A stretch of DNA of 57,100 nt from a virus (taxonomy: Duplodnaviria; Caudoviricetes), in IMG/VR virus record IMGVR_UViG_3300017700_000562, positions 1 through 57,100 of that record; one strand, 5' to 3'. A program made the translations under genes and the position numbers. A model generated the notes under the pieces. That model was not told where the DNA came from. It did no database searches and worked only from the letters and a program-made list of their open reading frames with translations. This document shows, piece after piece, positions 1 through 57,100 of the stretch (position 1 is its first letter; the number at the start of each line of letters is the position of its first letter).

Positions 1-123
1 CGCAAGCAGCCGTCGTTCACCGAGGATTACCTCAAGACCGTAGCGCCCGGTCGCGACATCCTCGACATTCGCCACCTGTCGCACATGCGGGACAGTTTCA
101 TCGCGCCGCTGTTGGAAGAACAC
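1..123. repeat. Terminal direct repeat, left copy (circular-assembly overlap)
   Basis: cgcaagcagccgtcg...gttggaagaacac is identical to 56978-57100, and it lies inside the polymerase ORF. Confidence 0.97.
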
Positions 124-1011
124 ATCTGGCGCGACCGGGTACATGCCAATTTTAACCAGATGCGCGGAGACGAATATGGAACTATCACGGGCCGCCTATC
201 GTGCGATAGCCCCAACCTACAACAGGCTCATAAGCGCGACGCTGAGCGTGGCCGTATGCTGCGTGGCCTATTTATCCCCGACGAAGGAAAAATCTTCGCC
301 GAAGTTGACTATTCCCAGTGCGAACCGCGCCTGCTCGCTTACTATTCAAGGTGCAAAGTTCTGCTCGACGGATACCGGGCAACTCCGTCTGTCGACGCTC
401 ATACCGCCGTTGGTAAAGCTATCAGCTTCGGTCGATGGGACGAATCTGATCCTGATGCCAAGGGGTCGGTGAACAAGCCGCTCCGAGAAAGCGGCAAGCG
501 CGTCAATCAGACCCTGATCACCGGGGGCGGCAAGGGTGTGATCGTGGCCCGCTACGGTGTGCCGCTGGCCGAAGTCGACAAGATATGGCGCGACTATTTC
601 AAGGCGATGCCTGAAATCAAGGAACTGCAGGATAAGGCCAGCAAGCGCATGCGCAAGCGCGGCTACGTGGTGTCGCTGCTGGGGCGCAGGTCGAGATTGA
701 ATGACGACCGGTTCTACGTCGCCGTTAACCGCTTGCTCCAGTGCGGCAACGCCGACGTGATCAAGTTGAAGATGGTCGAGATCGACGATTATATGGAATC
801 GCAGGGACGTCCTCCCATCGACGTGCTGCTCAACATCCACGACGCTCTGCTATTTCAATTTGACGAGAGCGCCCGCGTGCACTATAATAGGTGCCTTGAG
901 ATCATGTGCGCGTTCGGCCCCGACGACGAGATCACGCTCGACATTCCCATCGAAGTCGACGACGGCGAGGGCGAGACGTGGGCAGAAGCGACATTCGGGC
1001 CGGAGAAATAG
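1..1011 (+). CDS. polA: Family A DNA polymerase, C-terminal polymerase domain (continues from 55868 across the junction); candidate Z-adapted polymerase
   Basis: Motifs TITGRLSCDSPNLQQ, motif A AEVDYSQCEPRLLA, motif B RESGKRVNQTLITG, NRLLQCGNADVIK and motif C NIHDALL. The frame is continuous with the exonuclease half at the window end. Confidence 0.95.
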   Translation, partial: RKQPSFTEDYLKTVAPGRDILDIRHLSHMRDSFIAPLLEEHIWRDRVHANFNQMRGDEYGTITGRLSCDSPNLQQAHKRDAERGRMLRGLFIPDEGKIFAEVDYSQCEPRLLAYYSRCKVLLDGYRATPSVDAHTAVGKAISFGRWDESDPDAKGSVNKPLRESGKRVNQTLITGGGKGVIVARYGVPLAEVDKIWRDYFKAMPEIKELQDKASKRMRKRGYVVSLLGRRSRLNDDRFYVAVNRLLQCGNADVIKLKMVEIDDYMESQGRPPIDVLLNIHDALLFQFDESARVHYNRCLEIMCAFGPDDEITLDIPIEVDDGEGETWAEATFGPEK

Positions 1012-2120: not shown

Positions 2121-2569
2121 ACGAACTCCAGATGCAAAAGCTGGTCATCGATTCCGTCATCGAAGGGGGCGGCCGGGCTATGAAGCTTCAAAACGAGTTT
2201 GTCCGAGGCGTTTCGGACCTGCTCGTCAAGATGCCGGGCGGGGTACCGTTCTTCCTTGAGGCCAAGCGCACCGACCTTGGCAAGCGCACCCTGGGTCTAT
2301 TACACCACGAATTCAAGTGGGACGTTTCACAACTCCAGAAGAATTTCCTTCGCGACTGGCACAAGGCCGGCATGAAATGCGGCGTCGTGTCGTTCGTGCA
2401 GTTGACGGGGGGCGACATTCGATCACTCCGCATGGCCATATACCCATATCTTGACTGCGTCGAGCAGGGGTGGACCGGGTCTCTGGCCGACCACGTCGAA
2501 CTGGGTGACCACGTCCAGCGAAGCATCACAATACGAACCCTTCTCAACGCATTCAAACAGGTGCCCTGA
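2117..2569 (+). CDS. VRR-NUC / PD-(D/E)xK nuclease (Holliday-junction resolvase-like)
   Basis: GVSDLLV...FFLEAKR...SQLQKNFLRDWHKAG pattern in a replication module. Confidence 0.75.
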   Translation: MNELQMQKLVIDSVIEGGGRAMKLQNEFVRGVSDLLVKMPGGVPFFLEAKRTDLGKRTLGLLHHEFKWDVSQLQKNFLRDWHKAGMKCGVVSFVQLTGGDIRSLRMAIYPYLDCVEQGWTGSLADHVELGDHVQRSITIRTLLNAFKQVP

Positions 2570-3075
2570 TGGCTAATCGACTACTTACCGCAGACCAGAT
2601 CGTGTCGTTGTTCACTCGCTCGATGGTGGGGGAGGCTTTCACCACCCACCCCGCCAGCGACGAGACCCATATCAAGATAGTTCACATGGGAACGGGCCTG
2701 TCGGAAGATTTCACGACTCAGGACCGTATTCTGTCGGATGGGGATTTCATCAAGAACCGCATCGTGCCGTTCGAAGCGCGGGTACGGTCCAGTTACAAGG
2801 CGTCGGAGCGTTACGCCCCATGTTCTTTGCTTGGCGAGCGCGGCAAGACCCATGGGGACTACGACCAGATGGCTGCCGTCATTCAGTCTATCAAGTTTGC
2901 TATGCAATCCGGCAACTGGGAGGACCTTACGGCCACCCAGAAGGAAAGTTTAGACTTGACAGCCACCAAGATCGGGCGTATAGTCTGCGGCGATCCTAAT
3001 CACCGGGATCATTGGGACGATATCATCGGTTACGCAACACTGGCGCGGGATCGAATTCCCGTAAAGAAGGGCTAG
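2569..3075 (+). CDS. DUF6378-like protein (nucleotide-metabolism associated, all-alpha)
   Basis: C-terminal ERGKTHGDY...KIGRIVCGDPNHRDHWDDIIGYATL, immediately upstream of purZ. Confidence 0.7.
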   Translation: MANRLLTADQIVSLFTRSMVGEAFTTHPASDETHIKIVHMGTGLSEDFTTQDRILSDGDFIKNRIVPFEARVRSSYKASERYAPCSLLGERGKTHGDYDQMAAVIQSIKFAMQSGNWEDLTATQKESLDLTATKIGRIVCGDPNHRDHWDDIIGYATLARDRIPVKKG

Positions 3076-3079
3076 AACT

Positions 3080-4210
3080 ATGCTTGACGGTTTCATTCAG
3101 CGCGGCAAGATGTCGTTCATTCTCGGCGGTCAATTCGGATCGGAGGGCAAGGGCGCTGCAAGTGCCTGGGCCGTCACTGAACTGGTCAAGACCGGACGGG
3201 CGTTCGATATCATCACCACGAACGCGGGTGTCCAATCTGGACATACCAGCATCCACGAGGGCAAGAAGCGCGTGCTGTTTCATCTGCCGACTGCGGCGAT
3301 GTTTTGCGACGCCCCTGTACATCTGAACGCCGGATCGATCATCGACCCGGACGTATTGTTTCGTGAATTCGACGAGAACCCGGATTTCCGCTACACTCAC
3401 CGCCTGACCATTGATCCCTTTGCCGCCGTCGTCACTCAAGAGTGCCGCGACGCCGAAATGGCGAACGACAGCGCGCAGACCAAGATCGCGTCGACCCGCA
3501 AGGGTGTCGGTCAGGCGCTGGCGCGCAAGGTGCTGCGGTCTGGCATGGTCGCCAAGGACCACCCGCGACTGCAGCCTTTCATTTTTCAATTCAGTATGAA
3601 CGATGATCTCTCCAAGGGCGCTTCTATTCTCGCCGAAGTCCCGCAGGGCGTGTCGCTGTCGCTCAACGGCGGTTTCTATCCTCATACCACGAGCCGCGAC
3701 TGCACCGTGGCGCAGGCAGCCTCCGACGCCGGCATCCACCCGCATTTCGTCGGCCAGACGATGCTGGTGCTGCGCACGTTCCCGATCAGGGTGGGGAACA
3801 TCAATCGTACCGCAGAAGAGATTCGGGAGACAATGACCGCATATGAAAGCAAAGACCCTGAACAGTATAAGGGGTATTCCGGCGGCGTCTACCCTGACCA
3901 GTATGAGATATCGTTCGACGATCTCGGCGTCGAGGCCGAAATCACCACCGTCACCAAGCGTGTGCGCCGGATTTTCACCTGGTCCGACCAGCAGGTGGTC
4001 GACGCCATTCGCGTCTCGCGACCCAGCGTGATTTTCCTGTCGTTCTGCGATTATTTGCGCGGTGATGGGCAGGCAGGACAACCTTATATCACGGACGAGT
4101 TGGTACGCAAGGTCCGTGGTTTGTGTCGCGCCGAAGGTCTCGGTAACGTCGAGGTTCTGACCGCCTTCGGCCCGACCACGGCGGACGTGCGGGTCAACGA
4201 GAGCCGCTGA
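3080..4210 (+). CDS. purZ: PurZ-family N6-succino-2-amino-deoxyadenylate synthase (adenylosuccinate synthetase paralog)
   Basis: GGQFGSEGKG has Ser in place of the PurA catalytic Asp of GDEGKG. Also SGHT, STRKGVG, QG.SL...FYPHTTSRD, RTFPIRV and TTVTKRVRR. Followed by MazG-like and HD-domain genes. Confidence 0.92.
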   Translation: MLDGFIQRGKMSFILGGQFGSEGKGAASAWAVTELVKTGRAFDIITTNAGVQSGHTSIHEGKKRVLFHLPTAAMFCDAPVHLNAGSIIDPDVLFREFDENPDFRYTHRLTIDPFAAVVTQECRDAEMANDSAQTKIASTRKGVGQALARKVLRSGMVAKDHPRLQPFIFQFSMNDDLSKGASILAEVPQGVSLSLNGGFYPHTTSRDCTVAQAASDAGIHPHFVGQTMLVLRTFPIRVGNINRTAEEIRETMTAYESKDPEQYKGYSGGVYPDQYEISFDDLGVEAEITTVTKRVRRIFTWSDQQVVDAIRVSRPSVIFLSFCDYLRGDGQAGQPYITDELVRKVRGLCRAEGLGNVEVLTAFGPTTADVRVNESR

Positions 4211-4211
4211 A

Positions 4212-4673
4212 ATGACGACAGCGGCGATAATAGGAGCTACGAACATGACTTTACCCAAGGACTTGTCAGGGCACCCAGAACACCTAGTCATGGGTGTCCG
4301 CGACGAAGTGGCTGAGTTTGCGGTGGCTATGGAAGCCAAGCTTCGCAAGAACGACCACAAGACCGGCTGGAAGGATCAGCCCATCGAGGCCCACATCAAA
4401 TTGATGCGAATCGAAATGATGGAGTTCGACGTGGCGCTGGAATTTCTCGGCGACGAGGAAGCCGCCAAGGAATGCGTCGATATCGCGAATTTCGCCCTGA
4501 TCGTGCGCGACAAGCTGCTGGCGCGGATCGCGGCGAAGAAGGAAGCGGAGCGCCGGGAAAACAACCGCGAACCCGGCACGCTGGTACAGAAAGGGTGTGA
4601 CGTCGAGGGCTGCGGTGCACCCAGCTATGCTACCAATTGTGGCCATCCCAAGTGCATGATGCCCCCTTTCTAA
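4212..4673 (+). CDS. mazZ: MazG-like all-alpha (d)NTP pyrophosphohydrolase, MazZ-type
   Basis: MEAKLRKNDHK.GW...IEMMEF...EAAKECVDIANF provides ExxE...ExxD metal ligands. Position between purZ and datZ. Confidence 0.7.
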   Translation: MTTAAIIGATNMTLPKDLSGHPEHLVMGVRDEVAEFAVAMEAKLRKNDHKTGWKDQPIEAHIKLMRIEMMEFDVALEFLGDEEAAKECVDIANFALIVRDKLLARIAAKKEAERRENNREPGTLVQKGCDVEGCGAPSYATNCGHPKCMMPPF

Positions 4674-4688
4674 AAACAGGAATTTGAA

Positions 4689-5303
4689 ATGCCATACCAG
4701 AAGCTTTTCCCGCCCGAACTTCGCACCGCGTCAATAGTCCCGCGCTGGTCCGTAGTGTGGACCCTGAACAAGGATACCGTGGCGAACCATTCATATTTCG
4801 TCACGTTCTACGCGCGGCAGATCGCCAAGCTGATCGGGTGGAAGGGCTCGTACGAGGACCTGATGTACTACGCGCTGGTGCATGATCTCGACGAGACGGT
4901 GACGGGGGACATCGTGTCGCCGGTCAAGGCGGCAATCGTAGATAAACAAGCCTCCGATGTTTACGTAGACAATCACATGAGCCGGACCATGCCGGATGTC
5001 TTGGCAAATACTGCTCGGATAATGGACCCGTTTAATGAAGACCAATCAGGGAAATTCGACGAGCCCTCCGATATCAAGCTTATCGTCAAGGCAGCCGATC
5101 GCCTCGACGCCCTGTTGTTCCTGATCACCGAGGAACGGTTGGGAAATTCGATCATTATGAAGCGCACCCCGGACGCCCAATCGTTGCTGCGTCAGGCCTG
5201 GATGGATTTGCCCGGTATCGACGAAGCTGGTAAAAAGTTTACGTACGAGGTTATGCTTGAAGAAATTTCACACCACAGGTCCGGGGGTGGTTTCGGTGTC
5301 TGA
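4689..5303 (+). CDS. datZ: HD-domain dATP triphosphohydrolase, DatZ/YfbR-like
   Basis: VPRW...TVANHSY...ALVHDLDETVTGDIVSPVK...VKAADRLDA, within the purZ cluster. Confidence 0.85.
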   Translation: MPYQKLFPPELRTASIVPRWSVVWTLNKDTVANHSYFVTFYARQIAKLIGWKGSYEDLMYYALVHDLDETVTGDIVSPVKAAIVDKQASDVYVDNHMSRTMPDVLANTARIMDPFNEDQSGKFDEPSDIKLIVKAADRLDALLFLITEERLGNSIIMKRTPDAQSLLRQAWMDLPGIDEAGKKFTYEVMLEEISHHRSGGGFGV

Positions 5304-5502
5304 AACATTGACCTTGTACGTACACTGTGCTTGCAACGACGGCTTGGCCCCCAGTGAAGCCGAGGTGGATGCCATGTTGGATAGTCTTAATTATAGGGCT
5401 GCAGCCAGACTACTTGGCAAACACGTGGCACAACGAGAATGGTTCGGTACTTTGCCGTTTTCAGACAGTCTTGGCTTTGCGATATATCGGGATTTTGAAT
5501 GA
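5296..5502 (+). CDS. Small hypothetical protein
   Basis: Fills the gap between datZ and the helicase with overlaps. The GTG start is inferred. Confidence 0.45.
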   Translation: MSETLTLYVHCACNDGLAPSEAEVDAMLDSLNYRAAARLLGKHVAQREWFGTLPFSDSLGFAIYRDFE

Positions 5503-6908
5503 CCACCGATTGGCACCTGAACCACGCCCGTTTCGGCACTAAGCCCTGGGCTGTACAAGTCGAGGCTATGCGTCGTTCTGCCCCACACAGAAAATACGCG
5601 TTATTCGCCGAGCAGGGACTTGGAAAAACTGCAATGGCTCAGAACGCCTTTATCGACGACGATGACACCGACGTCCATCTGGTGCTCTGCCCGAATTCGT
5701 TCAAGAACGACTGGGTGCTGGCCCCTGAGGAATGGGGCGTAGGTTGGATGCCTGTCGGTATGTGGCCGCGCAACCCCATCCCGACCAACGAAGAATATAT
5801 CCAGTACGCCATCAACTTCGAGTCCGCGCGCAAGAGCAAGCTGAACGACCTGCTCCGGTTATGCGAGAAGCGACGTGTCCGGCTGACTATCGACGAATCC
5901 GCGATCCTCGCCAACCCCGGCACCGAATCCACCAAGGGTATGATCGAGATCGCCAAGCGCGCCGACCGGGTCTGGCTGCTGAACGGCACGCCCCTGATCA
6001 AGAACCCTGTCGACTATTTCGGCCAGTTGCGCGCCATCGGTCGCCTAAACGGCTGGAATGCTACTAATTTCAAGAACCGGTTCGCCGTAACTGGGGGTTG
6101 GAAAGGAAAACAACTCTTAAACGAGATCAAAAACGAGACCGAGTTAGCTACCATCCTCGACGAGTGTTCGTTTCGTGCCCTCAAGGCCGACTGGCGCAAG
6201 GACCTGCCCCCCAAGGTACGGACGCCCATTCATCTTGAAATGTCAGCCAAGCAGCGGGTCCATTACGATGAAATGATGGACGAGTTCTATACCATGGTTG
6301 ACGGCGAGGAAATCACCGCGCAACTGGTGCTGACGCAGATGGACAAGCTGCGCCAGATATCATCGTGCGTCCTGATGAAGGACGGCAATGAATATTTCTT
6401 CGAGGAAGACAAGAACAACCCTAAGCTACAGGCCCTGTACGACATCGTGTCGTCCTGTCCCGGCAAGATCATCGTGGTCTACAACTACAAGGCGTCGGGC
6501 ACGCTGTTACGGGAGTCGCTGACCAAGAAGGGTCTCAAGCCCGCCTATATCAAGGGTGGGATGAAGCCCGAGGAACTGTCGCGCCAGAAGGACATGTTCA
6601 ATAACGACCCCGACTGCCGGGCCATCGTGTGTCAGGAACTGGCCTCGTGCCGGGGACATACGCTGATCGGGCAGACCGGAAAAGACAGGTGCGCCACTAT
6701 GTATTTCTACGAAAATTCCTTCTCGTACTACCAGCGCGCCCAGATGGAGGACCGCAATCATCGCGGCGAGCAGGACGAGACTTGCAACATATATGACCCG
6801 GTCGTCAGCCCGATGGATGCTCTTACAGTTGAAATTCTGACCAATAAGAAAGACATGGCGGACGGCCTCGATCAGGTGGTGGCCAAAATACGGGAATTGA
6901 GGGGTTGA
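5499..6908 (+). CDS. SNF2-like SF2 helicase
   Basis: AEQGLGKT Walker A, TIDESA Walker B, LLNGTP, KLRQISS and QMEDRNHRGEQ motif VI. Confidence 0.9.
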   Translation: MTTDWHLNHARFGTKPWAVQVEAMRRSAPHRKYALFAEQGLGKTAMAQNAFIDDDDTDVHLVLCPNSFKNDWVLAPEEWGVGWMPVGMWPRNPIPTNEEYIQYAINFESARKSKLNDLLRLCEKRRVRLTIDESAILANPGTESTKGMIEIAKRADRVWLLNGTPLIKNPVDYFGQLRAIGRLNGWNATNFKNRFAVTGGWKGKQLLNEIKNETELATILDECSFRALKADWRKDLPPKVRTPIHLEMSAKQRVHYDEMMDEFYTMVDGEEITAQLVLTQMDKLRQISSCVLMKDGNEYFFEEDKNNPKLQALYDIVSSCPGKIIVVYNYKASGTLLRESLTKKGLKPAYIKGGMKPEELSRQKDMFNNDPDCRAIVCQELASCRGHTLIGQTGKDRCATMYFYENSFSYYQRAQMEDRNHRGEQDETCNIYDPVVSPMDALTVEILTNKKDMADGLDQVVAKIRELRG

Positions 6909-11448: not shown

Positions 11449-11913
11449 ATGCCCCGAGACTCAGAAAACCTTAAACGTTGGCGGGATGCTCGGTACCCCT
11501 TAGTGAAGGACGAGTTAAATCGCCAACGTAGTCAAAATCGCAAGGAAAGACGAGCTAATATGTCTTCGGAGGAAAAATCCAAGATATTAGAGACCAAACG
11601 TAACAATTACCGTCATGGGGACAAAACCTATCACGCGGCTCGTACCAAACGATACCGGGTTAAGCTTAAGATGGACGTAATCAAGGCTTATGGTGGGTGC
11701 TGCTCATGCTGTGAAGAGGACCACCCAGATTTCCTGACTGTCGACCATGTGAAAAACGATGGCAACGTCCACCGCCGCACTCTTAAAGGTACTCAAAATT
11801 TGTACCGCATGTTGCGGGACGCCGGCTACCCTAAAGATGACTACACCGTTCTTTGTTTCAATTGCAACATTGCACGCAGCCTGTTCGGCACGTGTCCACA
11901 CCAGAGGACCTGA
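11449..11913 (+). CDS. HNH-type (Cys-rich) homing endonuclease
   Basis: YGGCCSCC...LTVDHVKNDG...LCFNCN...CPH, in an AT-rich insert. Confidence 0.75.
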   Translation: MPRDSENLKRWRDARYPLVKDELNRQRSQNRKERRANMSSEEKSKILETKRNNYRHGDKTYHAARTKRYRVKLKMDVIKAYGGCCSCCEEDHPDFLTVDHVKNDGNVHRRTLKGTQNLYRMLRDAGYPKDDYTVLCFNCNIARSLFGTCPHQRT

Positions 11914-28899: not shown

Positions 28900-30108
28900 T
28901 CAGATTTTGTCCGGAACGATGCACGCCCATTCCGGTCGGACCGTCAGCGAACCGTACAGGACGTCGAGACGGGACGCCTCCTGGTCGGTGCCGATGATGT
29001 AGTCCTTAATGTAGCGCAGCGACACGTTGTCGTAGCGGTGACGCGCCGTGACCTTGTTCGCGGGCATCGGAAGATCGCCGGTCGCCATGGTGATCGCCTC
29101 GGGGGCGAACCGGAACGACTTGCGGTAGACCACGTTCGGATTGGTGAACAGCGAAATCACGGCACCGTTGGCCGGCGACACGTCGACGGTCTGGTACTGG
29201 ACGGCATTGCCGCCGATGGCCGGGATGATCGACGGATAGACCGCGAGACCGGTGGCCCCGTTCGCCGCGTTGGCCGTGATCACGAACTGACGAAGTTCGC
29301 CGGTCGTGTCCTTGGTGACGCGGTTGACGGCGTTGACGCCCGCGATGGTGATGATGTCGCCGACGTTCAGGGTGCCGGTGATGGCGTTGGTGACGAGGTT
29401 CGGACCGGACTGGCCTGCGCCGTTGACGGTGCCGGCAGTGAACGAACCAGCGGTGTGCTTGATGACGGTCTGGTCATTGAACCAGGTCGCACCCAGCGCC
29501 TTGTACATCGTGCCTTCGTAATACTGGTCGGAGATCGCGGACTGCGGGTTGAGCAGGCCGGCCAGCGACTTGACGACGCGGGCTTCCTGCCGGGGGTCGT
29601 TGATAATCTTGTGACCGACCATCGGCGCCGAATTCAGGCTGAGCGTGGCCTGGGCGTCGAGGTAGGTGCCGTCGTTGGGGGTGATGATGTTGTTGTTGGC
29701 GTCGAGGTTCGCCGCGATGTTGCAGATCGCCTCGGCGTTGGCGTTCATGATGGTCGAGGCCACCTTGCCGGCGAGGTTGTTCATCATCGGCAACAGAATG
29801 TTGTCGGAGAAGTCGTCGAGCGACAGCAGCATGTCGGCGGTGGTGAACGACACGTCGACGTGCTGCTGCGTCGCCATGGTCAGGACGGTCTGCTGCTCGG
29901 AGGTGTCCTGCACCGACAGCGCCGGGCCGGTGGTGACGATGTAGTCGTTCGGCAGGCGGATGCGCAACTGCGAACCGATCTTCTCACCATTCTTGCCGAA
30001 TTCCGAATCGTACTGGCGATTCAGGTTCTTGATGAAGGCGTTGGTGTTGATGAACAGCGGCACCGCCTCGCGCGTGATCTGCGAAATGGTGAGAAGGTTG
30101 TTGGCCAT
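28900..30108 (-). CDS. Major capsid protein, P22 coat (gp5) family
   Basis: MANNLLT...KIGSQLRIRLP...RLDVLYG..TVRPEWA, with a GAGGA RBS at 30108 and strong codon bias. Confidence 0.93.
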   Translation of the reverse strand: MANNLLTISQITREAVPLFINTNAFIKNLNRQYDSEFGKNGEKIGSQLRIRLPNDYIVTTGPALSVQDTSEQQTVLTMATQQHVDVSFTTADMLLSLDDFSDNILLPMMNNLAGKVASTIMNANAEAICNIAANLDANNNIITPNDGTYLDAQATLSLNSAPMVGHKIINDPRQEARVVKSLAGLLNPQSAISDQYYEGTMYKALGATWFNDQTVIKHTAGSFTAGTVNGAGQSGPNLVTNAITGTLNVGDIITIAGVNAVNRVTKDTTGELRQFVITANAANGATGLAVYPSIIPAIGGNAVQYQTVDVSPANGAVISLFTNPNVVYRKSFRFAPEAITMATGDLPMPANKVTARHRYDNVSLRYIKDYIIGTDQEASRLDVLYGSLTVRPEWACIVPDKI

Positions 30109-30253
30109 GTTGTCCTCGATTGTTGTCGTGCTGTGTTTCGGATTTTTGCGGTGCCTGAATTCGCAACTTTTGGTAGGCCAGCACGAGAACAATGCGCTCG
30201 GACGCCGTTTAGGGCACTAGAATTTTACAAGCGCTAGGACGCCGATGAATAGT

Positions 30254-34900: not shown

Positions 34901-35396
34901 TGTCCTGCGCGCGCTCGATAACGCGGTCGCCCGGCTGTTGCCACGGCGACGTGAAACCCGAACCCCGAGGCAATTCCACCATATCTTCCGTACGGAGGCC
35001 GGGGAGCGGCATCGGCTGCGCGCCGGACACGACGTCGCCGGGCAGCGTCAGACCGGACCGGACCATTTTCTCCGGCCACGTCTGGTACCTTTCCTGACCG
35101 TTGGTGCCCAGCAGGCGGTCGCGGGCGCGCTCAGCCACCGGGGCCTCGCCGGGCGCGACGCCGGCCGTACCGACGTTCGACCCCAGCCCCTGTATCATCG
35201 ATCCCAGTCTGGCCAGCAACGTGCCGATGTCAACACCCCCTTGCTCTACGGGTTCGTCGACTTTGCCCTCCATGCGCGCGGCCAGCTTGTTAGGGGCAGC
35301 ACCGCCGATGCGCACCCGAAAAACTCCGTCCGGGTCGCGCACCATGCCCGAGCCTTCATCGGGGTTCAGGTACTGTTCTAGTTCATTAGCCATCAC
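31890..35396 (-). CDS. Large mosaic polyvalent-type protein with a putative ADP-ribosyltransferase-fold domain
   Basis: 1168 aa. VFHVAPIENVESILKEGLIP...TYFH...VLEARI is ART/Tpt1-like. Conserved-looking blocks FYSAVE...GVKGEEL, HWDEPNVLAH, EEIQSDWHQ, VPDAPF and GMKAFYD. Confidence 0.65.
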   Translation of the reverse strand: MMANELEQYLNPDEGSGMVRDPDGVFRVRIGGAAPNKLAARMEGKVDEPVEQGGVDIGTLLARLGSMIQGLGSNVGTAGVAPGEAPVAERARDRLLGTNGQERYQTWPEKMVRSGLTLPGDVVSGAQPMPLPGLRTEDMVELPRGSGFTSPWQQPGDRVIERAQDTSGLMGGGSIASVKAGEATLGSGPVRRLDNGFRPQHLDPTLKYLKSSNRLNDDGTISVFHVAPIENVESILKEGLIPGKSPASGQNWKPAYSGDGTYFHGTRKAALENLAQTEQGSHQVLEARIPATEKNLKKFLPDEDVSSDPMDGIHALARGESTAVLGGVKPEYLRLLSDQWMPTVDMGVPMVRNPLTGDMVPKDLFTPTGRISTTYLKEIGDYVDHNPNAPSHWTEAGSKNMAELHERLVGDGWELKDNRKSTRVYSDPNTTTGYRAVAFSDKPATYVKGDQTIKVEPTHNDDYRAQIKIGKDSKFEDLEPHKTAKYARAVGDAYGVDPSKLMSDSAVPGAPISAIAKQQAPAFYSAVEHSVMNAPQPKMSYDQWMGYLKNQPGVKGEELAWMGLGEKNPFEGKSVSKEQMQDWVNNHKVEIKEVKKGNKDLSDPEYEAGMRDEYENQFGHPPENTVDLMDWMEDTGMSDTKFGSYQLPGAENYREVLFTLPSKTADRVGAMDRYAKLTNEADRRNLTDAEHAEMVDLERVLSGQPAGSSYGGDYRSSHWDEPNVLAHTRLNDRVIDGKKSLHVEEIQSDWHQEGRKKGYKEDVPTKEEIHAARDDASAARVDLGSHILEKAKQAGVDLDDSGMSLIHKIEAGELPANKVPWWLDTPEYHAIAKEYKDAWDKQGALIKKTQGVPDAPFKTTWPDLVLKRLIREASEKGYDQISWTPGEAQAARYDLSKQVDQLKWSKNDDGTFNLSPYKDGRLVGHATHHAALMENVAHPNVPADKLADFVGKDVADKIIAGEGAVKSKKTLNVGDKVKLNLPDIPAFKDLIGQEGVIDKRMPSGQHQFTVKFPNGDRRSFSKAELVPVGNNLKGELSGLDLKVGGEGMKAFYDKMLVDKANALGKKFGAKVNKGSTGVSFDAVDPKGNVVASAPTRAEMEAWVARMNESNKDLGVGDFTVKDVGSPVYVLPITDKMREAAIGKGFPLFASGIPFPLVPVEDNPWKIEQ

Positions 35397-37780
35397 TGCG
35401 CCCCCACAGGAGCAGGCGTCTCGACCTGGTAATACTGGCCACCCTTCTTTATATAGTAGTTCTGGCCATCCGGGGTGCGGGGTGTATCGAAGTCTTCCTC
35501 CGAATCCTCGTCGAATTCGGCTTCCTGCGACTGTTCGTGCGGGATCAGCAGCCGGCTATCCTGGTTGGCGCTGTCCTGCAGCGCCTCCTGTATCATCTGC
35601 TTGATCAGTGCAGCCAGACCTTCACCCTCGCCGGCATCCTGCAGGTTCTCGACGGCGTTGCCAATTTCCTTGATACGCTTGGTGTGCGAATCGAACGCCT
35701 GGATGTCGGTCTTGCGATACTCGTTGGACACGCTCGCACCCTTGAGCGCCAGTTCGGCCGTCTTGTCTTCCAGCGCCTTTTGCAGTTGTTGCAGACCTTC
35801 GGTGGCCTGCTTAAGCTGGGCTTCAAGCTGCTGCGTCTTGGGATTGGGCGCTTCGTCGTCAAGCAGCCACGGAGCGTTGGCCTTGAGTTTGCGTTTGTAG
35901 CGCTCCGAAATCTTGTCGGCCAGCGGGAAGTCAGCAGACTTGAACATGAGATCGCCGAATTCGTCGATGAACGCCGGGTTGCCGGTAACGATCTGGACGA
36001 ACGCGTTCCAGGCCTCCTGCCGCTGGGTTGAATAGGCCGGACCGGACTTGGCCTGCACCTTGTACTTGCCCACGGACGGATTGAACATTACCTGGACTTC
36101 GTCGGCGTCGATCTTCTTTTCCTCGTACGCCGCCTTGGCCTTCGGATCGATCTGCACTTCCATTTCGGTGCCATCCTTTTCGAGGATTTGCACCACGCGC
36201 TTGGTATCGTAGGTCTTGGGGATCAGATCGAGCAGAATGATGCCCGTGGTCTCGATGGCAATAGCCAGATTGTCGTTGAAATTATAGGTGATCAGTTCGC
36301 CGGTCTGCTTGGTCTGATTGATCGCGTAGCCCGACTTCTCGACGGTCGGCTTGCCGAACTGCGCCGGACCTTGACCCGAGGCCATTTCAAATTCAGCCGC
36401 TGCAATCTGCATGCCGGTAATGAAGGCCGGCGACGCACCGGGCGGTTCGGGGCGTGTTGGTGCGGGGATCGGTTGACCCTGTGCGTCGACGTGCTTGAAC
36501 GTGAGATAGGCCGCGTTGGTCTTGTTGGCGTTATTCCATGCCCTTTCATTTCCGGCGAACGCCGCAGCCGGACCGACCCACGGCGATTTGGAGGCCAGCG
36601 CACCATATTCGACCTGACCGGACGAATTGTAGTTGTACATGCGCTGCGGGTCCTTGAGCGTGCGTACCAGACCCTTGCGCTCCAGCTTGCCGTCGATGAC
36701 GCGCTCCTTGCCGACGCAGCGCACGATGGGAACATATGACGACTTCAAGTCACGCCGTTCCAGAATTTCCGACCCCGCCAGCTTGAACCATTGCAGGCGG
36801 CGAACGTCGATAGGCCGGCGCTTGACTTCGGTGTCCTCGCTGATGTCCTTCTCCAGCTTGCGAATCTGGCGCAACACGGCCGGGTCGCACTGCGACTTGC
36901 GGATGGTGCTCTCCTTGTCGCCCTCGCGCACGTAGATCAGTTCGTCGCGCTCGATGTTGATGCGATAATACTCGGCGATGCGGACCTGGTCATCCTTGAA
37001 CCAGTCCAGCATGTCACCGGACAGCGCCGACCCACGCGGGACGCGGACCTTGGGATACTGGCGCTTGAACTCCTTGATAGGCATACTGTCGAAGATGAAC
37101 CCCCACATGGCGTCGAGGCCGGACTTCTGCTTGATGTTGGGATCGAGCAACACGCCCATATGTGACTGCACCGGGGCGATGCGGCACTCCTGATCGAACG
37201 AATCGTCGTCCGCGTATTCGGTAATGATGCGCCAATATCCGATGCCGCCTTCTACCGCGCTTTCCATCGCGTCGTCGTAAATAGCCTGTGCACCGGACCG
37301 ATATTCGATATTGCGAACCAGACCCTCGTACATCTGAGCCGCGTCGTACGAACTGTCGGCCCCGGCCGGGCGAATATCGATGGCTGCCTTGTTCTGCTTG
37401 GCGTCGTTTGTGACCAGGGCCACGTGGTTCTGCGTCTTGTTGATCGTCAGTGACGGTTTACCGACGACGCCGCGCTCACGCCACATATCGTTCGGCCACT
37501 GCCAGCCGTTATCACTGTCACCGTTGGCGAACTTGACGTCGTCCACATACAGCGACATGAACGCAGATTCCCAGTCCATCGCGATGTCAAAGCGTTCGCG
37601 GGCCTCGATCAGGATGTCTTCGTCGATCTGCTCGTCGTCGATTTCCTGCTCGCTGCGGGTCTCGGCCAGTTCGGACACCTCAGTGCCTTCACGAGTCTTG
37701 CGAATATTGTTAAGTTCACCCGAATTCTGGTTCGAGATCGAGCGCATGCCGGGAGTGGAGCGGGGGCGACGGGTTGCCAT
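35393..37780 (-). CDS. Portal protein, P22-like
   Basis: DDVKFANG...WQWP, LTINK, GGIGYWRI, LKDPQRMYNY and GPAYSTQRQE, directly downstream of terL. Confidence 0.92.
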   Translation of the reverse strand: MATRRPRSTPGMRSISNQNSGELNNIRKTREGTEVSELAETRSEQEIDDEQIDEDILIEARERFDIAMDWESAFMSLYVDDVKFANGDSDNGWQWPNDMWRERGVVGKPSLTINKTQNHVALVTNDAKQNKAAIDIRPAGADSSYDAAQMYEGLVRNIEYRSGAQAIYDDAMESAVEGGIGYWRIITEYADDDSFDQECRIAPVQSHMGVLLDPNIKQKSGLDAMWGFIFDSMPIKEFKRQYPKVRVPRGSALSGDMLDWFKDDQVRIAEYYRINIERDELIYVREGDKESTIRKSQCDPAVLRQIRKLEKDISEDTEVKRRPIDVRRLQWFKLAGSEILERRDLKSSYVPIVRCVGKERVIDGKLERKGLVRTLKDPQRMYNYNSSGQVEYGALASKSPWVGPAAAFAGNERAWNNANKTNAAYLTFKHVDAQGQPIPAPTRPEPPGASPAFITGMQIAAAEFEMASGQGPAQFGKPTVEKSGYAINQTKQTGELITYNFNDNLAIAIETTGIILLDLIPKTYDTKRVVQILEKDGTEMEVQIDPKAKAAYEEKKIDADEVQVMFNPSVGKYKVQAKSGPAYSTQRQEAWNAFVQIVTGNPAFIDEFGDLMFKSADFPLADKISERYKRKLKANAPWLLDDEAPNPKTQQLEAQLKQATEGLQQLQKALEDKTAELALKGASVSNEYRKTDIQAFDSHTKRIKEIGNAVENLQDAGEGEGLAALIKQMIQEALQDSANQDSRLLIPHEQSQEAEFDEDSEEDFDTPRTPDGQNYYIKKGGQYYQVETPAPVGAQ

Positions 37781-46402: not shown

Positions 46403-46640
46403 CTGTCGTCTTCGCTCCCCCGTTCACCGTTGCTGGCAGTATCTGTCCGGCACTAGCATGTTGGAATGGCCGATGTGGGTCGTCAGCCGCACTCGCTACA
46501 CCGCGAACGGTCTAGTGGTCGACCGCAGCACCGGGGCGCAAGTCGTGGGATATGGCGACTGGCTGGTCCACGATCTGGACAAGACCGACTTGCTATGGTA
46601 TGATGAAAAAACCTTCAAGAAGGAAATGGAGCTTATATGA
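46395..46640 (+). CDS. Hypothetical protein
   Basis: AAGGAGG RBS and GDWLV...FKKEME. Confidence 0.6.
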   Translation: MPNCRLRSPVHRCWQYLSGTSMLEWPMWVVSRTRYTANGLVVDRSTGAQVVGYGDWLVHDLDKTDLLWYDEKTFKKEMELI

Positions 46641-47164
46641 CGCCCAGGATCAAGGTTATCTGGACCGATGAACTTATCACCATGCTGCGCAGGCTCCATT
46701 CCGAGGGACTGTCGGGCTCTCAAATCGCCTCCATGATACCTGGGGCCACCCGCAACGCCATCATTGGCAAGATACACCGGCTGGGCCTAACCCAGTCCGA
46801 CGTGTCTGGTCACAGACGCAAGACCTCCAAGTCATTCAGACCCCCGCGTCCCTCAGGCAACAGGGGCGGATTCGGGGCCTTCAACATCCAGAAGCCCCTT
46901 ACTTCCATTCCGTTCGTCGCGCCCGTTATTAACCCGCTCGACCCTGACAAGATTTGTCATTATGACGACCTAGGCCCTGGCCGGTGTAACTGGCCGGTGG
47001 ACGTCGAGGGTCGGACCAACATGTACTGCGGCGGCGACGTCGACCCCGACAAGTTCCGAGCCGTATACTGCAAGGTCCACGGGTTCAAGGCTACCAACCG
47101 CCGCAACGACCCTATCAGCAAGCAAATCAAGCCGGGCAACATGACGCGGGGATTGGGGCGTTAA
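46637..47164 (+). CDS. gcrA: GcrA cell-cycle regulator homolog
   Basis: WTDELITMLRRLHSEGLSGSQIA...TRNAIIGKIHRLGL, and C-terminal CNWP...YCG...YCKVH. Confidence 0.92.
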   Translation: MTPRIKVIWTDELITMLRRLHSEGLSGSQIASMIPGATRNAIIGKIHRLGLTQSDVSGHRRKTSKSFRPPRPSGNRGGFGAFNIQKPLTSIPFVAPVINPLDPDKICHYDDLGPGRCNWPVDVEGRTNMYCGGDVDPDKFRAVYCKVHGFKATNRRNDPISKQIKPGNMTRGLGR

Positions 47165-49947: not shown

Positions 49948-50706
49948 ATGGCCGCGATCCATCATCAGACTTTGAAGAAAGCCAAGTCCTTCGGTATCGT
50001 CCTCACCGTCGAGGACAACGACGTCGTCGCCACCAAGGACGGCGTGCAACTGGCCAGCGGGCTGCAGGGCAACAAGGTCCTCGAAGCGGCCATTGCGAAG
50101 CTGACTCCGGAAGTCAAGGGCGCCGTCACCGGCCGCACCACCAGTACCACTTCCCCAGTTACTGAGATCGCCAAGGACGGCGTCAAGGTCAAGCCCACCA
50201 AGGTTTCCAAGGTCGTCGAGCTTTCCCCGGCCGAACTGGCTGCCAAGGAAGCTGCTGAGGCCGAGGGCTGGAAGGCCTTGCGCGCTGGCGGCTTTGTCCG
50301 CAAGACCCCCGGCGAAGAGACCGACTACTCCGAGGCCAAGACGTGGGCCGAACTCTGCGAAGAGCAGGATATCGAAGTCGAGCAGGAAGAGGCCGAAGAA
50401 GAGGAAGCCCCCGCTTCCGTGATAAAGGACAAATATAAAAAGATTTACGCGCAGACCGCCGTGAAAGGTACCTGCGGCGACGACCTCGCAAAGCAATTGC
50501 GCGAATATCTGATGGTCGACACCGAGGACGGCCCGCGCATCGACAAGAAGAAGCTACGCAAATGGGCCGAGGCCAACGGGGTCTGGGTCGCGGCCTACGG
50601 GTCGATGAAGGTCGGCATGATTGCCATGAATACTCGAAACCGTCTGCGCGGTAATATGCGCAAGGCCGAAAAAGCCGGTGAAGTGTTTGAGGTCCAATGG
50701 CCGTAA
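49948..50706 (+). CDS. Highly expressed-looking early protein with NG-W-Y-G-M-NRL family domain
   Basis: Strong codon bias; TCGDDLA...ANGVWVAAYGSMKVGMIAMNTRNRLRG. Confidence 0.8.
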   Translation: MAAIHHQTLKKAKSFGIVLTVEDNDVVATKDGVQLASGLQGNKVLEAAIAKLTPEVKGAVTGRTTSTTSPVTEIAKDGVKVKPTKVSKVVELSPAELAAKEAAEAEGWKALRAGGFVRKTPGEETDYSEAKTWAELCEEQDIEVEQEEAEEEEAPASVIKDKYKKIYAQTAVKGTCGDDLAKQLREYLMVDTEDGPRIDKKKLRKWAEANGVWVAAYGSMKVGMIAMNTRNRLRGNMRKAEKAGEVFEVQWP

Positions 50707-51746
50707 AGTCCAAAAATAAACCTACGTTTATTAGTAGGCCCGTGGCGGAAGCTGCGGGCCTTAAACGCTTTTACACTGGACAGAAGTGTCCCCAAGGGCA
50801 CGTAGCTGAAAGGTACGTAAAAGACAGTAAATGTGTGGTTTGTAAAGGGATAAGACATTCAGCATTTGTAGCTAGGACAGGATACAATTGGCATAAACTA
50901 AATCCCGAACGTAGACGCGCTAATGATAATACCCGGTATGCCAAAGACCCCGATAGAATAAAAAACAAAAACAAGTCGTACCATGAAAAACACCCAGAAA
51001 TCCGCAGAGCAATAAGGCGTCGTAGGCGGGCCAGAATTTTGGCCGCTGAGGGGGACCACACCCCCAAGGACATTAAGGATTTGTTTGATAAACAGAAAGG
51101 CTTATGTGCTGGCCCTCATTGTCGAAAAGATATCAGTACCAAATACCAGATAGACCACATGGTTCCTATAACCAGAGGGGGTTCTAACTGGCCCAGTAAT
51201 TTACAACTTCTGTGTTTCCACTGTAATAATTCTAAGCACACTAAGACTAACGAGGAATGGTTAGAGTTTATTAAACTACCAAGATTGACACGTTGGGACG
51301 GGCGTGCTGTAAAGATTAATGAGGGGCCTAAATCTGGAGAGTCTATCATGGTTGCTAAAAAGGCCAAAAAGGAATCCGCTTCGGTGGTTGATACCGAAAA
51401 GTTCAACTACGAGACGACCAAAATTCGCGGGGTCGACGGCAAGATCCGCCATTCGCGCGGCAATCAGGACGCCATTGCCAAGGCTCTTCTTGTGTTCATC
51501 GCCGGAGGTGGGGATATCAAGAAGGTAATCAAGGCTAATGGTCTTTCGGACCGCATGAAGGGTCGCGAAGGAATGAACGCCGGCTTGTTTCGGATGACAG
51601 CGTCGGTGATGCTCCGCAAGCTGGTCCGCGACGGCACCCCGGTCGAGATCGGCGACATCACGGTCAAGAAGCTGGACCAGGTTGTCAAGGTGCCGGCCGA
51701 AGTCGAGAAGCCGGCGCGGAAGGCTCGGGTCGCGAAAGCAGCTTAG
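50697..51746 (+). CDS. HNH endonuclease reading in frame into a downstream early gene
   Basis: GLKRFYTGQKCPQGH, QKGLCAGPHC, IDHMVPITRGGSNWPSNLQLLCFHCNNSK. There is no stop before MVAKKAKK. Confidence 0.75.
   Translation: MAVKSKNKPTFISRPVAEAAGLKRFYTGQKCPQGHVAERYVKDSKCVVCKGIRHSAFVARTGYNWHKLNPERRRANDNTRYAKDPDRIKNKNKSYHEKHPEIRRAIRRRRRARILAAEGDHTPKDIKDLFDKQKGLCAGPHCRKDISTKYQIDHMVPITRGGSNWPSNLQLLCFHCNNSKHTKTNEEWLEFIKLPRLTRWDGRAVKINEGPKSGESIMVAKKAKKESASVVDTEKFNYETTKIRGVDGKIRHSRGNQDAIAKALLVFIAGGGDIKKVIKANGLSDRMKGREGMNAGLFRMTASVMLRKLVRDGTPVEIGDITVKKLDQVVKVPAEVEKPARKARVAKAA
51348..51746 (+). CDS. Early basic protein, third NG-G-RM family member (independent internal start)
   Basis: TTGACA at 51285, GGAGAG RBS, and a codon-usage switch at ATG 51348. 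Confidence 0.7.
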   Translation: MVAKKAKKESASVVDTEKFNYETTKIRGVDGKIRHSRGNQDAIAKALLVFIAGGGDIKKVIKANGLSDRMKGREGMNAGLFRMTASVMLRKLVRDGTPVEIGDITVKKLDQVVKVPAEVEKPARKARVAKAA

Positions 51747-55731: not shown

Positions 55732-56016
55732 ATGCCTAATATCAACAACAAGACCCTTCGCGACGCAACCTGGAAACAGGTTTACCGCTATACTGGGGCC
55801 AAGGTGTCGTTCATCACCTACGCCTGCGAGGAAATTCCCGGACTCACCATCACGAAGGACATGCTCGGTGCCAAAGTCGTCAAAACCACGTACACCGTCG
55901 CCGGCAAAGCCACGGACAGTCCGACGCAAGCCGTCCGCGACTACAACGCCCACCAGAGAGCCCAATCTGGCCGACAGGAAGTACCGGGAAGTCCTCGCGC
56001 GGCTGGACTCAGATGA
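55732..56016 (+). CDS. Hypothetical protein overlapping the polymerase start
   Basis: Good codon usage; overlaps the pol frame. Confidence 0.5.
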   Translation: MPNINNKTLRDATWKQVYRYTGAKVSFITYACEEIPGLTITKDMLGAKVVKTTYTVAGKATDSPTQAVRDYNAHQRAQSGRQEVPGSPRAAGLR

Positions 56017-57100
56017 ACCGCTCATTTCGCTGGACACCGAGACTTCTGGCCTCGATTGGCGCGTGCACCATATTGTCGGCTACGTATTTGCTTTCTCCGC
56101 GAGCCCCGACGATAGTTATTACATTCCTGTTAGGCATGCTGGTCGGAACAATGTTGGGGGTCATGCTGGTCCATCGACTGCCACTGGCTGGGACGGCGAA
56201 ACCCTTGCGCATGGGGAAGCGGAACTCTTACGGCTGTCTATGCGGAAGGGACTACGATACGTAGGCCACAATCTGTCGTTCGATCTCAAGTTCTTGTATC
56301 GGGTCTGCGGCACGGCGGCGTTCGATCCCCAATACGAAGACACCATGATCAACGAACCGTTGATTGATGAACATGCCGGCAAATTCAGCCTTGAAGCCTG
56401 CTGCCTGCGGCGCGGGGTTCAGGCCAAAAAGAGCCATATGATGTACGACCACATCCACAAGCTGTTCCCCGAGGTGCCGGCCGCGGCGTCGTCGATGGGA
56501 CACTTCTGGCGACTAGACGCTGAGGACTCGGTGGCGATTGAATACGCCGAGGGCGACGGCACGTCGACTTGGCAACTGCGCGACGCGCAGATGGAAGAAA
56601 TGCTGCGGCAAGATGCAGAACATTACAAAGCAGACATCTTGGATTGGCTGGGTACTGCACCTAGGGTATGGGATGGGGACGAAGAGCGCGACGCGATAGG
56701 GCGGGAGTGGTTTGATCTTCCTGAGAACCACAAACTTCCCACCCTGCGCCGCGTCCACGGCATCGAGTCCCGTCTGATCCGCGTCCTAGCGCGCATGACC
56801 TGTAAGGGTCTGCGCACCGACCGCAAGGCCGTCCAGAAGCTTTACGACGGCCTCACCAAAAAGATCAACGGTTTGATGGAGAAGCTGCCCCCCGGCGCGT
56901 CGGTGCGCTCGCCGAACGACGTCAAGGCCTGGTTGATGGTTAACGGCATTACGAGCGGTTGGCCCCTGACCCCCAAGCGCAAGCAGCCGTCGTTCACCGA
57001 GGATTACCTCAAGACCGTAGCGCCCGGTCGCGACATCCTCGACATTCGCCACCTGTCGCACATGCGGGACAGTTTCATCGCGCCGCTGTTGGAAGAACAC
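55868..57100 (+). CDS. polA: Family A DNA polymerase, N-terminal 3-5 exonuclease and thumb (continues into 1-1011; about 706 aa in total)
   Basis: My translation gives ExoI LDTETSGL, ExoII GHNLSFDL, DTMI and ExoIII EYAEGD. The frame is open to the window end. The GTG start at 55868 is inferred. Confidence 0.9.
   Translation, partial: MPKSSKPRTPSPAKPRTVRRKPSATTTPTREPNLADRKYREVLARLDSDEPLISLDTETSGLDWRVHHIVGYVFAFSASPDDSYYIPVRHAGRNNVGGHAGPSTATGWDGETLAHGEAELLRLSMRKGLRYVGHNLSFDLKFLYRVCGTAAFDPQYEDTMINEPLIDEHAGKFSLEACCLRRGVQAKKSHMMYDHIHKLFPEVPAAASSMGHFWRLDAEDSVAIEYAEGDGTSTWQLRDAQMEEMLRQDAEHYKADILDWLGTAPRVWDGDEERDAIGREWFDLPENHKLPTLRRVHGIESRLIRVLARMTCKGLRTDRKAVQKLYDGLTKKINGLMEKLPPGASVRSPNDVKAWLMVNGITSGWPLTPKRKQPSFTEDYLKTVAPGRDILDIRHLSHMRDSFIAPLLEEH
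56978..57100. repeat. Terminal direct repeat, right copy
   Basis: Identical to 1-123. Confidence 0.97.

Follow-up and report, generated by a model that had tools for sequence, protein, structure and literature searches.

Does an uncultured freshwater phage that encodes three adjacent purine-nucleotide enzymes carry 2-aminoadenine (Z) in its DNA in place of adenine? The question is raised by positions 3080-5303 of the IMG/VR record IMGVR_UViG_3300017700_000562, which we analysed in full (57,100 nt; below, the window). An earlier note on this DNA had described, over 2569-5303, adjacent genes for a PurA paralogue with a GSEGKG motif, a MazG-like hydrolase and an HD hydrolase close to a phage PolA, and had read them as a complete PurZ, MazZ and DatZ cassette. 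All of these genes were found in place, on the + strand and tightly packed; the three enzymes occupy 3080-5303, whereas the first open reading frame (ORF) of the span, 2569-3075, codes for a DUF6378 protein outside the triad. The triad itself is backed by homology, conserved residues, phylogeny and synteny. These results suggest, with a probability of about 0.8, that the window is a complete phage genome with a working Z-cluster and that, judging from its genes, its DNA is Z-substituted, as the earlier note had proposed.

The pathway that we envisage is modelled on those of the phages phiVC8 and S-2L and of the Acinetobacter phage SH-Ab 15497. MazZ-2 (4212-4673) would convert dGTP to dGMP, from which PurZ (3080-4210) would form dSMP using aspartate and ATP; PurB and kinases of the host would then carry the PurZ product on to dZTP, and DatZ (4689-5303) would destroy dATP. 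The phage PolA would finally copy the genome with Z replacing adenine, so that in this proposal the building of Z into the genome follows from the supply of dZTP together with the removal of dATP. The enzyme activities, the host steps and the degree of A-to-Z replacement are what we infer by analogy with these systems.

Identity of the cassette genes

The 376-amino-acid product of 3080-4210 (+ strand) is well supported as PurZ, a putative succino-2-amino-deoxyadenylate synthase, by homology, active-site residues, phylogeny and synteny. It matches PF00709 (105 bits) and phrog_1211, '2-aminooxy adenylosuccinate synthetase' (E=4e-55), and its best NCBIfam model is NF038379 PurZ, with 201 bits as compared to 163 bits for an archaeal-type PurA model. 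Its P-loop reads GGQFGSEGKG, in which S21 aligns with S14 of phiVC8 PurZ, where PurA has an aspartate; this serine is invariant in all 32 aligned clade members and close homologues. The glutamate that follows it is not diagnostic, as the Ochrobactrum phage vB_OspP_OH (OH below) has STG there and its nearest IMG/VR relatives have SEG.

We further aligned 20 sequences and read them at the 13 positions that discriminate between PurZ and PurA according to a 2025 preprint (bioRxiv 10.1101/2025.10.22.683976). The window protein agrees with phiVC8 PurZ at F12, S14, P233, Y244, G256, T262, F295 and Y298 (phiVC8 numbering) and with S-2L at positions 252 (F) and 273 (T). At 295/298, the residues are M/Q in the PurZ0 proteins of actinophages and K followed by either V or I in PurA. 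The window PurZ therefore retains the residues predicted to form the dGMP and ATP pockets, namely S14, F12 and T262 around the 2-amino group and F295 and Y298 stacking on ATP; in window numbering, pocket residues are F19, T289, F322 and Y325. The introduction of one recent paper (PMC12884076) states that PurZ uses ATP, in apparent inconsistency with section 24 of the same paper.

The next gene (4212-4673, + strand) codes for a 153-amino-acid protein that we assign to MazZ type 2, a putative MazG-like (d)GTP pyrophosphohydrolase; homology, residues and synteny make the assignment well supported. The protein is 29% identical to gp33 of OH, an 'NTP pyrophosphohydrolase' (E=1e-11), and a family profile of 23 homologues matched p26 of phiVC8, a protein of the MazZ-2 type, with an hhalign probability of 96.5% (E=8e-10). 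Czernecki et al. (2021; PMC8342488) separate an S-2L-like MazZ-1 from a phiVC8-like MazZ-2, give the OH protein the latter name, and describe four strictly conserved acidic residues in MazZ-2. An acidic tetrad (E68, E71, E87 and D90) is indeed invariant in 23 of 23 aligned MazZ sequences. Against the PDB, the family profile retrieved the hypothetical protein 2p06 (E=2.7e-12) and, weakly, the MazG-related entries 2yxh (0.007) and 1vmg (0.01) and HisE 1yvw (0.19), and the ESM Atlas, which we used for leads only, placed the protein near PRA-PH/MazG clusters (0.82-0.87). Membership in MazZ-1 was considered and rejected, the profile having no similarity to S-2L MazZ-1 (probability 2%). Since the ESM Atlas record begins at residue 12, translation may alternatively start at 4245. 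Among the 23 aligned homologues, only the window copy has a C-terminal tail with four cysteines (residues ~129-149; 4600-4673).

The third gene (4689-5303, + strand) codes for a 204-amino-acid HD-domain protein whose identification as DatZ, the predicted dATP triphosphohydrolase, is likewise well supported by homology, residues and synteny. It matches PF12917 YfbR-like (62 bits), HD_3 and HD, as well as phrog_7076, 'dATP triphosphohydrolase' (E=2e-16). A structural study of S-2L DatZ (PMC8065100) gives the roles of 13 key positions, and the window protein is identical to S-2L at 11 of these (R19, W20, A32, H34, H66, D67, G74, P79, K81, K116 and D119), with V in place of I22 and D in place of Q29. 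This leaves unchanged the four metal ligands (H34, H66, D67 and D119) as well as the three residues that bind the triphosphate (R19, K81 and K116). For substrate specificity the same study points to W20, which excludes a 2'-OH, to I22, which excludes a 2-amino group, and to P79. W20 and P78 of the window protein (the latter aligned with S-2L P79) are identical to their S-2L counterparts, and the position of I22 holds a valine, with isoleucine found there in 10 of the 14 window-lineage homologues of the alignment.

Phylogeny of PurZ and conservation of the cassette

PurZ was placed in a phylogeny against PurA and PurZ0 by means of two trees. The first was built with FastTree from 203 rows, comprising 189 loci with a match, minus 3 that lacked a recognisable P-loop, 1 of fewer than 300 amino acids and 3 duplicates, plus 21 database proteins; the second was built with IQ-TREE in quick mode (LG+C20 with posterior mean site frequencies, PMSF) from 67 rows chosen from the 203. 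In the IQ-TREE phylogeny the window protein falls in a clade of 32 of the 67 rows together with phiVC8, S-2L, JeffCo, BCSR129 and OH (Shimodaira-Hasegawa-like approximate likelihood ratio test, SH-aLRT, 99), and within it in a 20-row sub-clade that unites it with OH (SH-aLRT 99). The 203-row tree agrees, placing the window PurZ in the OH sub-clade of a well-supported clade with the assayed PurZ types. This clade holds every assayed PurZ type in the tree set (phiVC8, S-2L and the Acinetobacter JeffCo-type). Outside it in both trees are PurZ0 (from phages Wayne and Goodman), bacterial PurA, and the short archaeal PurA proteins that have Asp. A topology joining the window clade to PurZ0 was rejected by the approximately unbiased (AU) test (delta lnL 106, p=9.5e-6), the tested group having been defined once the tree was known.

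Scanning viral contigs for close relatives with a single protein returned none. An alignment-based scan of IMG/VR retrieved 79 loci, whose downstream gene content was scored (profile or phmmer threshold 1e-3, with our own ORF calls) where at least 1.8 kb of downstream sequence was present. Of the 15 loci in the window clade, 14 could be scored in this way; MazZ-2 was found in 12, DatZ in 12 and both in 10, with a DUF6378 gene upstream in 11/14. The sister group gave 7 scorable loci, with MazZ-2 in 7, DatZ in 6 and both in 6 (DUF6378 upstream in 3/7), and the 13 loci on the OH side gave 8, with MazZ-2 in all 8, DatZ in 2 and both in 2 (DUF6378 upstream in 4/11). Since MazZ-2 and DatZ occur together in 10 of the 14 related viral loci of the window clade, the linkage of the cassette is more than chance. 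On the OH side, the relatives L034-L044 keep purZ and MazZ-2, with DatZ not detected within the available sequence; L030 and L032 are the only two of the eight loci with DatZ, and OH itself carries it.

A protein search with the window PurZ retrieved 1911 proteins at E<=1e-10, of which the best 120 were all at least 50% identical and came from contigs of up to ~71 kb. Among five near-complete relatives, three combine the cassette with a coat protein 72-78% identical to that of the window. Because this coat is common to these three and not to the other two, the lineage is partly mosaic.

Alternatives to a Z-substituted genome

A number of observations weigh against Z-substitution. The PurZ score of 201 bits lies under the curated NF038379 cut-off of 300, as does that of OH (241), with phiVC8 at 397 and Wayne at 367. 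The window PurZ deviates at three of the discriminating positions, with E instead of T at 15, T at 34 and G at 144, and has an insertion of ~20 residues after IRVGN; it is at most 39% identical to any cultured-phage PurZ (OH being closest with 38.9%), and PurZ identity is below 60% in all 205 matching cultured-phage records. The 153-amino-acid MazZ protein has no Pfam or NCBIfam match, and a single-sequence PDB search with it gave none either. For DatZ, the PDB sequence matches to OxsA (1e-7) and YfbR (1e-6) come ahead of that to S-2L DatZ (6e-4), so that its orthology rests mainly on residues and synteny. In the window clade, 2 of the 14 scorable loci have no detectable MazZ-2 and 2 have no detectable DatZ. 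The window PolA scores 92.7 bits against Klenow and 92.3 bits against phiVC8 DpoZ (7pbk) in the PDB and is therefore not nearer to DpoZ. Ser-type PurA paralogues with PurZ-like residues also exist on chromosomes that have neither MazZ nor DatZ, which means that the serine alone proves little. Finally, the case for Z-substitution is built on genes, and the sole run with the sequence is kept as contigs.

Some of these observations would fit a cassette that reshapes the pools of purine deoxynucleoside triphosphates in a phage whose genome is Z-substituted in part or not at all, for example by depleting dATP so as to shut off the host, Z then being a minor base. PolA, a family-A DNA polymerase, reads in frame across the record junction, from an N-terminal part at 55868-57100 (+ strand, ORF open at its 3' end; PF01612 3'-5' exonuclease, 31 bits) into a C-terminal polymerase domain at 1-1011 (+ strand; PF00476, 162 bits), giving ~706 residues as computed from the coordinates. 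By E-value its closest cultured-phage homologues come mostly from PurZ phages (OH 1e-40; Klebsiella, PSA28 and PMBT28 ~1e-34). We speak of it as a candidate DpoZ-like replicase with a possible preference for Z, while its lack of specific affinity to DpoZ in the PDB scores and its identity of only ~30% to Z-phage PolAs fit a mere change of pools as well. So do the retention of an N6-adenine methyltransferase next to polA, an enzyme that makes most sense in DNA containing adenine, and the strong avoidance of GANTC that persists in this genome. However, the S-2L triad alone was reported to be enough for replacing A by Z in bacterial DNA, and the S-2L PrimPol was described as non-selective, the selectivity coming from DatZ (PMC8342488, PMC8065100). 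In the window, the three genes are intact with their key residues conserved, and GANTC avoidance is still stronger in OH (ratio 0.15), which figures among the listed Z-cluster phages. We therefore regard an effect on nucleotide pools without full substitution as unlikely.

It could also be argued that the 376-amino-acid protein is a Ser-type PurA paralogue acting on another substrate, in a cassette that makes or removes a different purine nucleotide. Its best PDB sequence match is an archaeal PurA (2e-37), slightly ahead of phiVC8 PurZ (7e-36), its PurZ score is under the NCBIfam cut-off, and paralogues of this type proved to be widespread outside Z-clusters. When species-representative bacterial genomes were searched with the pattern GGQ[WFY]GSE[GA]K, at least 600 stretches matched, 562 were confirmed as relatives and 80 were kept as loci. 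Short Ser-type paralogues (GSEGKG, with PurZ-like S14, T262 and Y298) were found on chromosomes that also carry a normal PurA, and 78 of the 80 kept loci had no MazZ, DatZ, DUF550, DUF5664 or DUF6378 within 7 kb. The earlier note had called the Asp-to-Ser change diagnostic; with at least 562 confirmed bacterial paralogues carrying it, the change by itself is no evidence of a Z genome. As this signature over-calls, calling a Z genome needs the triad or a phylogeny, and for the window it is the two together that carry the conclusion. The bacterial paralogues form clades that in both trees lie outside PurZ and outside PurZ0, but the window protein sits inside the clade of assayed PurZ types and apart from both paralogue clades; its ATP-stacking and 2-amino pocket residues are conserved, and MazZ-2 and DatZ accompany its gene, unlike in 78 of the 80 bacterial loci. 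A different substrate for this enzyme thus seems decidedly improbable. A non-functional relic, or a chimera produced during assembly, is less probable still, to the point of being negligible. The record is admittedly a metagenome assembly, and the only run with its sequence is possibly its source; however, the ORFs of the cluster are intact and tightly spaced, the same block recurs in independent viral contigs, and three near-complete relatives share both cassette and coat.

The surroundings of the bacterial Ser-type paralogues (loci L088-L167; examples L164:5894-9265, L090:3538-8065 and L136:2010-9660) deserve a description of their own. Their neighbours include kinase-like proteins (an AAA_18 kinase is fused to the paralogue), NUDIX, DUF7002, dCTP-deaminase-like and deoxynucleoside kinase proteins, and an RNase_H_2-like protein with a kinase domain. 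These neighbours suggest a possible nucleotide-modifying or defence-like operon that is so far uncharacterised; PADLOC has no family for the paralogue, and a literature search on a PurA-like defence gene returned nothing relevant.

Genome layout and neighbouring genes

IMG/VR classes the record as 'direct terminal repeats' and 100% complete. Its last 123 nt (56978-57100) are an exact copy of positions 1-123, an overlap left by the assembly of a genome that is circular or permuted, so that the unique genome measures 56,977 bp. GC content along the record ranges from 51 to 64%. Only one sequencing run contains the sequence; it comes from a freshwater metagenome and is the possible source of the record.

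The cassette genes are all on the + strand and nearly abut one another between PolA, with its 3'-5' exonuclease domain, and an SNF2 helicase; the full order from 5' to 3' is polA, D12 methyltransferase, two small ORFs, a nuclease-like gene, DUF6378, purZ, mazZ, datZ and SNF2 helicase. The nuclease-like protein (2117-2569, + strand) matches phrog_93 'endonuclease' (E=4e-8) and has homologues in the same slot upstream of the cluster in related loci. The SNF2-family helicase (5499-6908, + strand; PF00176 and PF00271; phrog_62, E=3e-82) ends the conserved block, and its homologues lie downstream of datZ in OH and related loci. Downstream of the helicase there is a Cys-rich ORF of 154 amino acids (11449-11913, + strand) without a Pfam match. 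Farther along the record, a 349-amino-acid endonuclease VII or HNH-type nuclease (50697-51746, + strand) matches 15 PHROG families.

Directly upstream of purZ, the gene at 2569-3075 (+ strand) codes for a 168-amino-acid DUF6378 protein. Its PF19905 score of 24.3 bits is under the cut-off of 27.1, and the ESM Atlas connects it to DUF6378 clusters (feature score 0.95, TM 0.9); gp31 of OH, in the same slot, scores 81.5 bits for DUF6378. The conserved core spans ~80 residues (about 85-165), with K134, R137, D151 and Y155 invariant in all 19 sequences. A DUF6378 profile showed no similarity to the DUF5664 protein of Wayne or to a six-sequence DUF5664 alignment and had no credible match in the PDB; its comparison with the MazZ-2 profile gave a weak match over 68 columns (probability 17%, E=0.0015) that we did not use as evidence. 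In the viral loci the slot upstream of purZ is mostly taken by a DUF6378 gene. Together with the loci L031:6595-7062 and L028:6540-6959, the window hints that the slot is perhaps functionally tied to the control of nucleotide pools. For the present we do not count DUF6378 among the components specific to Z: in the main text of two papers that annotate DUF6378 proteins in phages, neither PurZ nor adenylosuccinate synthetase occurs, which is not proof of absence.

The methyltransferase gene (1010-1750, + strand) starts within the stop of polA and codes for a D12-class (Dam-like) N6-adenine DNA methyltransferase (PF02086, 39.7 bits; PFAGSA and DPPY motifs in the translation). Homologues of it are scarce: none of the 79 IMG/VR loci has one at a distance of up to 7 kb from purZ, and only three phage records match it, at 32% identity or less. 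PF02086 was found in none of the five reference Z phages, OH included, and in one of the five near-complete relatives, as a weak match. It is conceivable, but in our view unlikely, that the DNA is doubly non-canonical, with A first replaced by Z and the phage methyltransferase, its gene translationally coupled to polA, then making N6-methyl-2-aminoadenine at specific sites, such that the CcrM/GcrA circuitry would read and write Z-DNA and be both evaded and exploited by the phage. If this were true, then, taken with the phage GcrA and the extreme GANTC avoidance, CcrM/GcrA-type epigenetic circuitry of Alphaproteobacteria would still function on Z-DNA. A methyltransferase together with GANTC avoidance in a probably adenine-free genome in any event offers a concrete case for asking about N6-methylation acting on Z.

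Phage type and host

The structural genes support the description of the phage as a P22-like podovirus, its morphology being predicted from these genes. A P22-type major coat protein is encoded at 28900-30192 (- strand; phrog_283, E=5e-54; its matches are annotated 'P22 coat protein') and a P22-type portal protein at 35393-37780 (- strand; phrog_156, E=3e-96; matches annotated 'phage P22 like portal protein'). PHROG matches include the portal, coat, scaffold, head-closure and ejection proteins (phrog_156, 283, 8865, 578 and 598) and extend to a large terminase and to tail or tailspike proteins. Tape-measure, tube or sheath families were absent among the 20 proteins scanned against PHROGs, a set that left out smaller ORFs.

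The host is probably an alphaproteobacterium. The window encodes a GcrA-family regulator at 46637-47164 (+ strand; PF07750, 74.5-75.2 bits, above cut-off) that serves as a host indicator; all 11 of its PLSDB matches lie on alphaproteobacterial replicons, and GcrA is also present in three of the five near-complete relatives. GANTC is the sequence recognised by CcrM, and Caulobacter has fewer copies of it than expected. In the window, it occurs 98 times against an expectation of 254.7 +/- 13.7, and of 96 palindromic patterns no other is as strongly depleted (z=-9.6). Its ratio is 0.13-0.49 in all eight stretches from relatives that were tested (set L002, L009-L031) and 0.35 in a Bradyrhizobium stretch, in contrast to phiVC8 (1.28), JeffCo (1.03) and a Pseudomonas stretch (0.93), where the site is not depleted. 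The depletion is not exclusive to one host group, since S-2L is depleted as well (ratio 0.39). A direct link to a host was not obtained, with no tRNA genes found in the record and no genome locus above 38% PurZ identity, but GcrA, the GANTC depletion and the nearest cassette, in an Ochrobactrum phage, all fit an alphaproteobacterium. The three features that the earlier note had attributed to this phage, namely a P22-like head, a GcrA gene and a probable alphaproteobacterial host, are therefore borne out at this level of confidence.

Two further patterns were examined. GATC, observed 302 times with 283 +/- 15 expected, is not depleted, and as its count is not below expectation there is no sign of Dam-site avoidance. 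CGNCG is strongly enriched in the window (766 against 513 expected).

Comparison with known systems

The Z-cluster concept and the pathways of phiVC8, S-2L and SH-Ab 15497 have been published (PMC8342488; PMC12884076), and a 2026 paper puts the number of Z-phage groups in the NCBI virus set at seven or more (PMC12884076). Podoviruses have belonged to this picture since its beginning (PMC8342488). The earlier note had expected a P22-like podovirus with GcrA to widen the known range of Z phages. This does not hold, since Z-cluster podoviruses, one of them alphaproteobacterial, have been in print since 2020-21: phiVC8 was described as a Z phage of the Podoviridae (PMC8342488), and OH, whose genes are arranged as in the window, infects the alphaproteobacterium Ochrobactrum and has podovirus morphology in electron micrographs (PMC7139368); it was listed among the Z-cluster phages in 2021 (PMC8342488).

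OH (Wolominvirus) is the closest relative of the window among cultured phages in both PurZ and PolA. Like the window, it has a PolA with a 3'-5' exonuclease domain, a nuclease, a DUF6378 gene (annotated as 'phosphofructokinase'), purZ, MazZ-2, datZ and an SNF2-type helicase, and both genomes are depleted of GANTC. The two differ in genome size (41 kb in OH, 57 kb in the window), in the P-loop (GSTGKG in OH, GSEGKG in the window) and in an extra small ORF that OH has between mazZ and datZ. The annotated structural genes of OH, in the stretch examined, are also unlike the P22-type portal and coat of the window.

Phage phiVC8 shares with the window the order purZ-mazZ2-datZ near PolA, the MazZ-2 family and the PurZ pocket residues, and its p22 is a weak DUF6378 gene nearby. 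It is a podovirus system characterised by biochemistry and structure, with PurZ, MazZ-2, DatZ and DpoZ. Its PurZ is 32.6% identical to that of the window, its DatZ carries L22 and V79, against V22 and P78 in the window protein (P78 being the counterpart of S-2L P79), and its host is a gammaproteobacterium, with no depletion of GANTC. S-2L has the same three functions in the same order, with agreement at the DatZ positions listed above and at F252 and T273 of PurZ. However, its MazZ-1 (DUF550, PF04447) has no detectable similarity to the MazZ family of the window, it replicates with PrimPol rather than with a PolA such as the window has (PMC8065100), and it was described as a siphovirus (PMC8342488). 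The PurZ0 actinophages (Arthrobacter phage Wayne and Microbacterium phage Goodman) resemble the window in having a PolA nearby and a P-loop in which Ser is followed by Glu (GSEAKG), and differ from it in forming a separate clade and in having M295/Q298 instead of F/Y; the pool enzymes reported for them are Dut-like, NDT-like and DUF5664 proteins, not MazZ and DatZ (PMC12884076).

Among the cultured phages nearest in their head genes, Pseudomonas phage PAE2 is 45% identical in portal and 55% in coat, and the Acetobacter phage phiAX1 is 33% and 42% identical, respectively. The P22-like genomes compared (PAE2, phiAX1 and 'P22 like' contigs from Manatee Spring) measure 34-51 kb, against 57 kb for the window. 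PAE2 and phiAX1 are absent among 100 of the 205 PurZ-matching records, no search aimed at purZ in these P22-like genomes having been made. Since the P22-type coat accompanies the cassette in three of the five near-complete relatives, the Z-cluster seems to have settled in a head type that is not found among the cultured Z phages compared.

The window therefore adds a divergent example of a Z system that is already known, rather than phage biology of a new kind. What is new is the divergent lineage, with a PurZ at most 39% identical to those of cultured phages and common in metagenomes, together with the D12 methyltransferase beside the cluster. Because the PurZ proteins of both the window and OH score under the NCBIfam cut-off, automatic annotation is expected to call such genes plain adenylosuccinate synthetase and thereby to miss Z genomes. 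Set beside phiVC8, S-2L and OH, the window offers a complete reference genome for a divergent and metagenome-abundant lineage of phages with probable Z-DNA.

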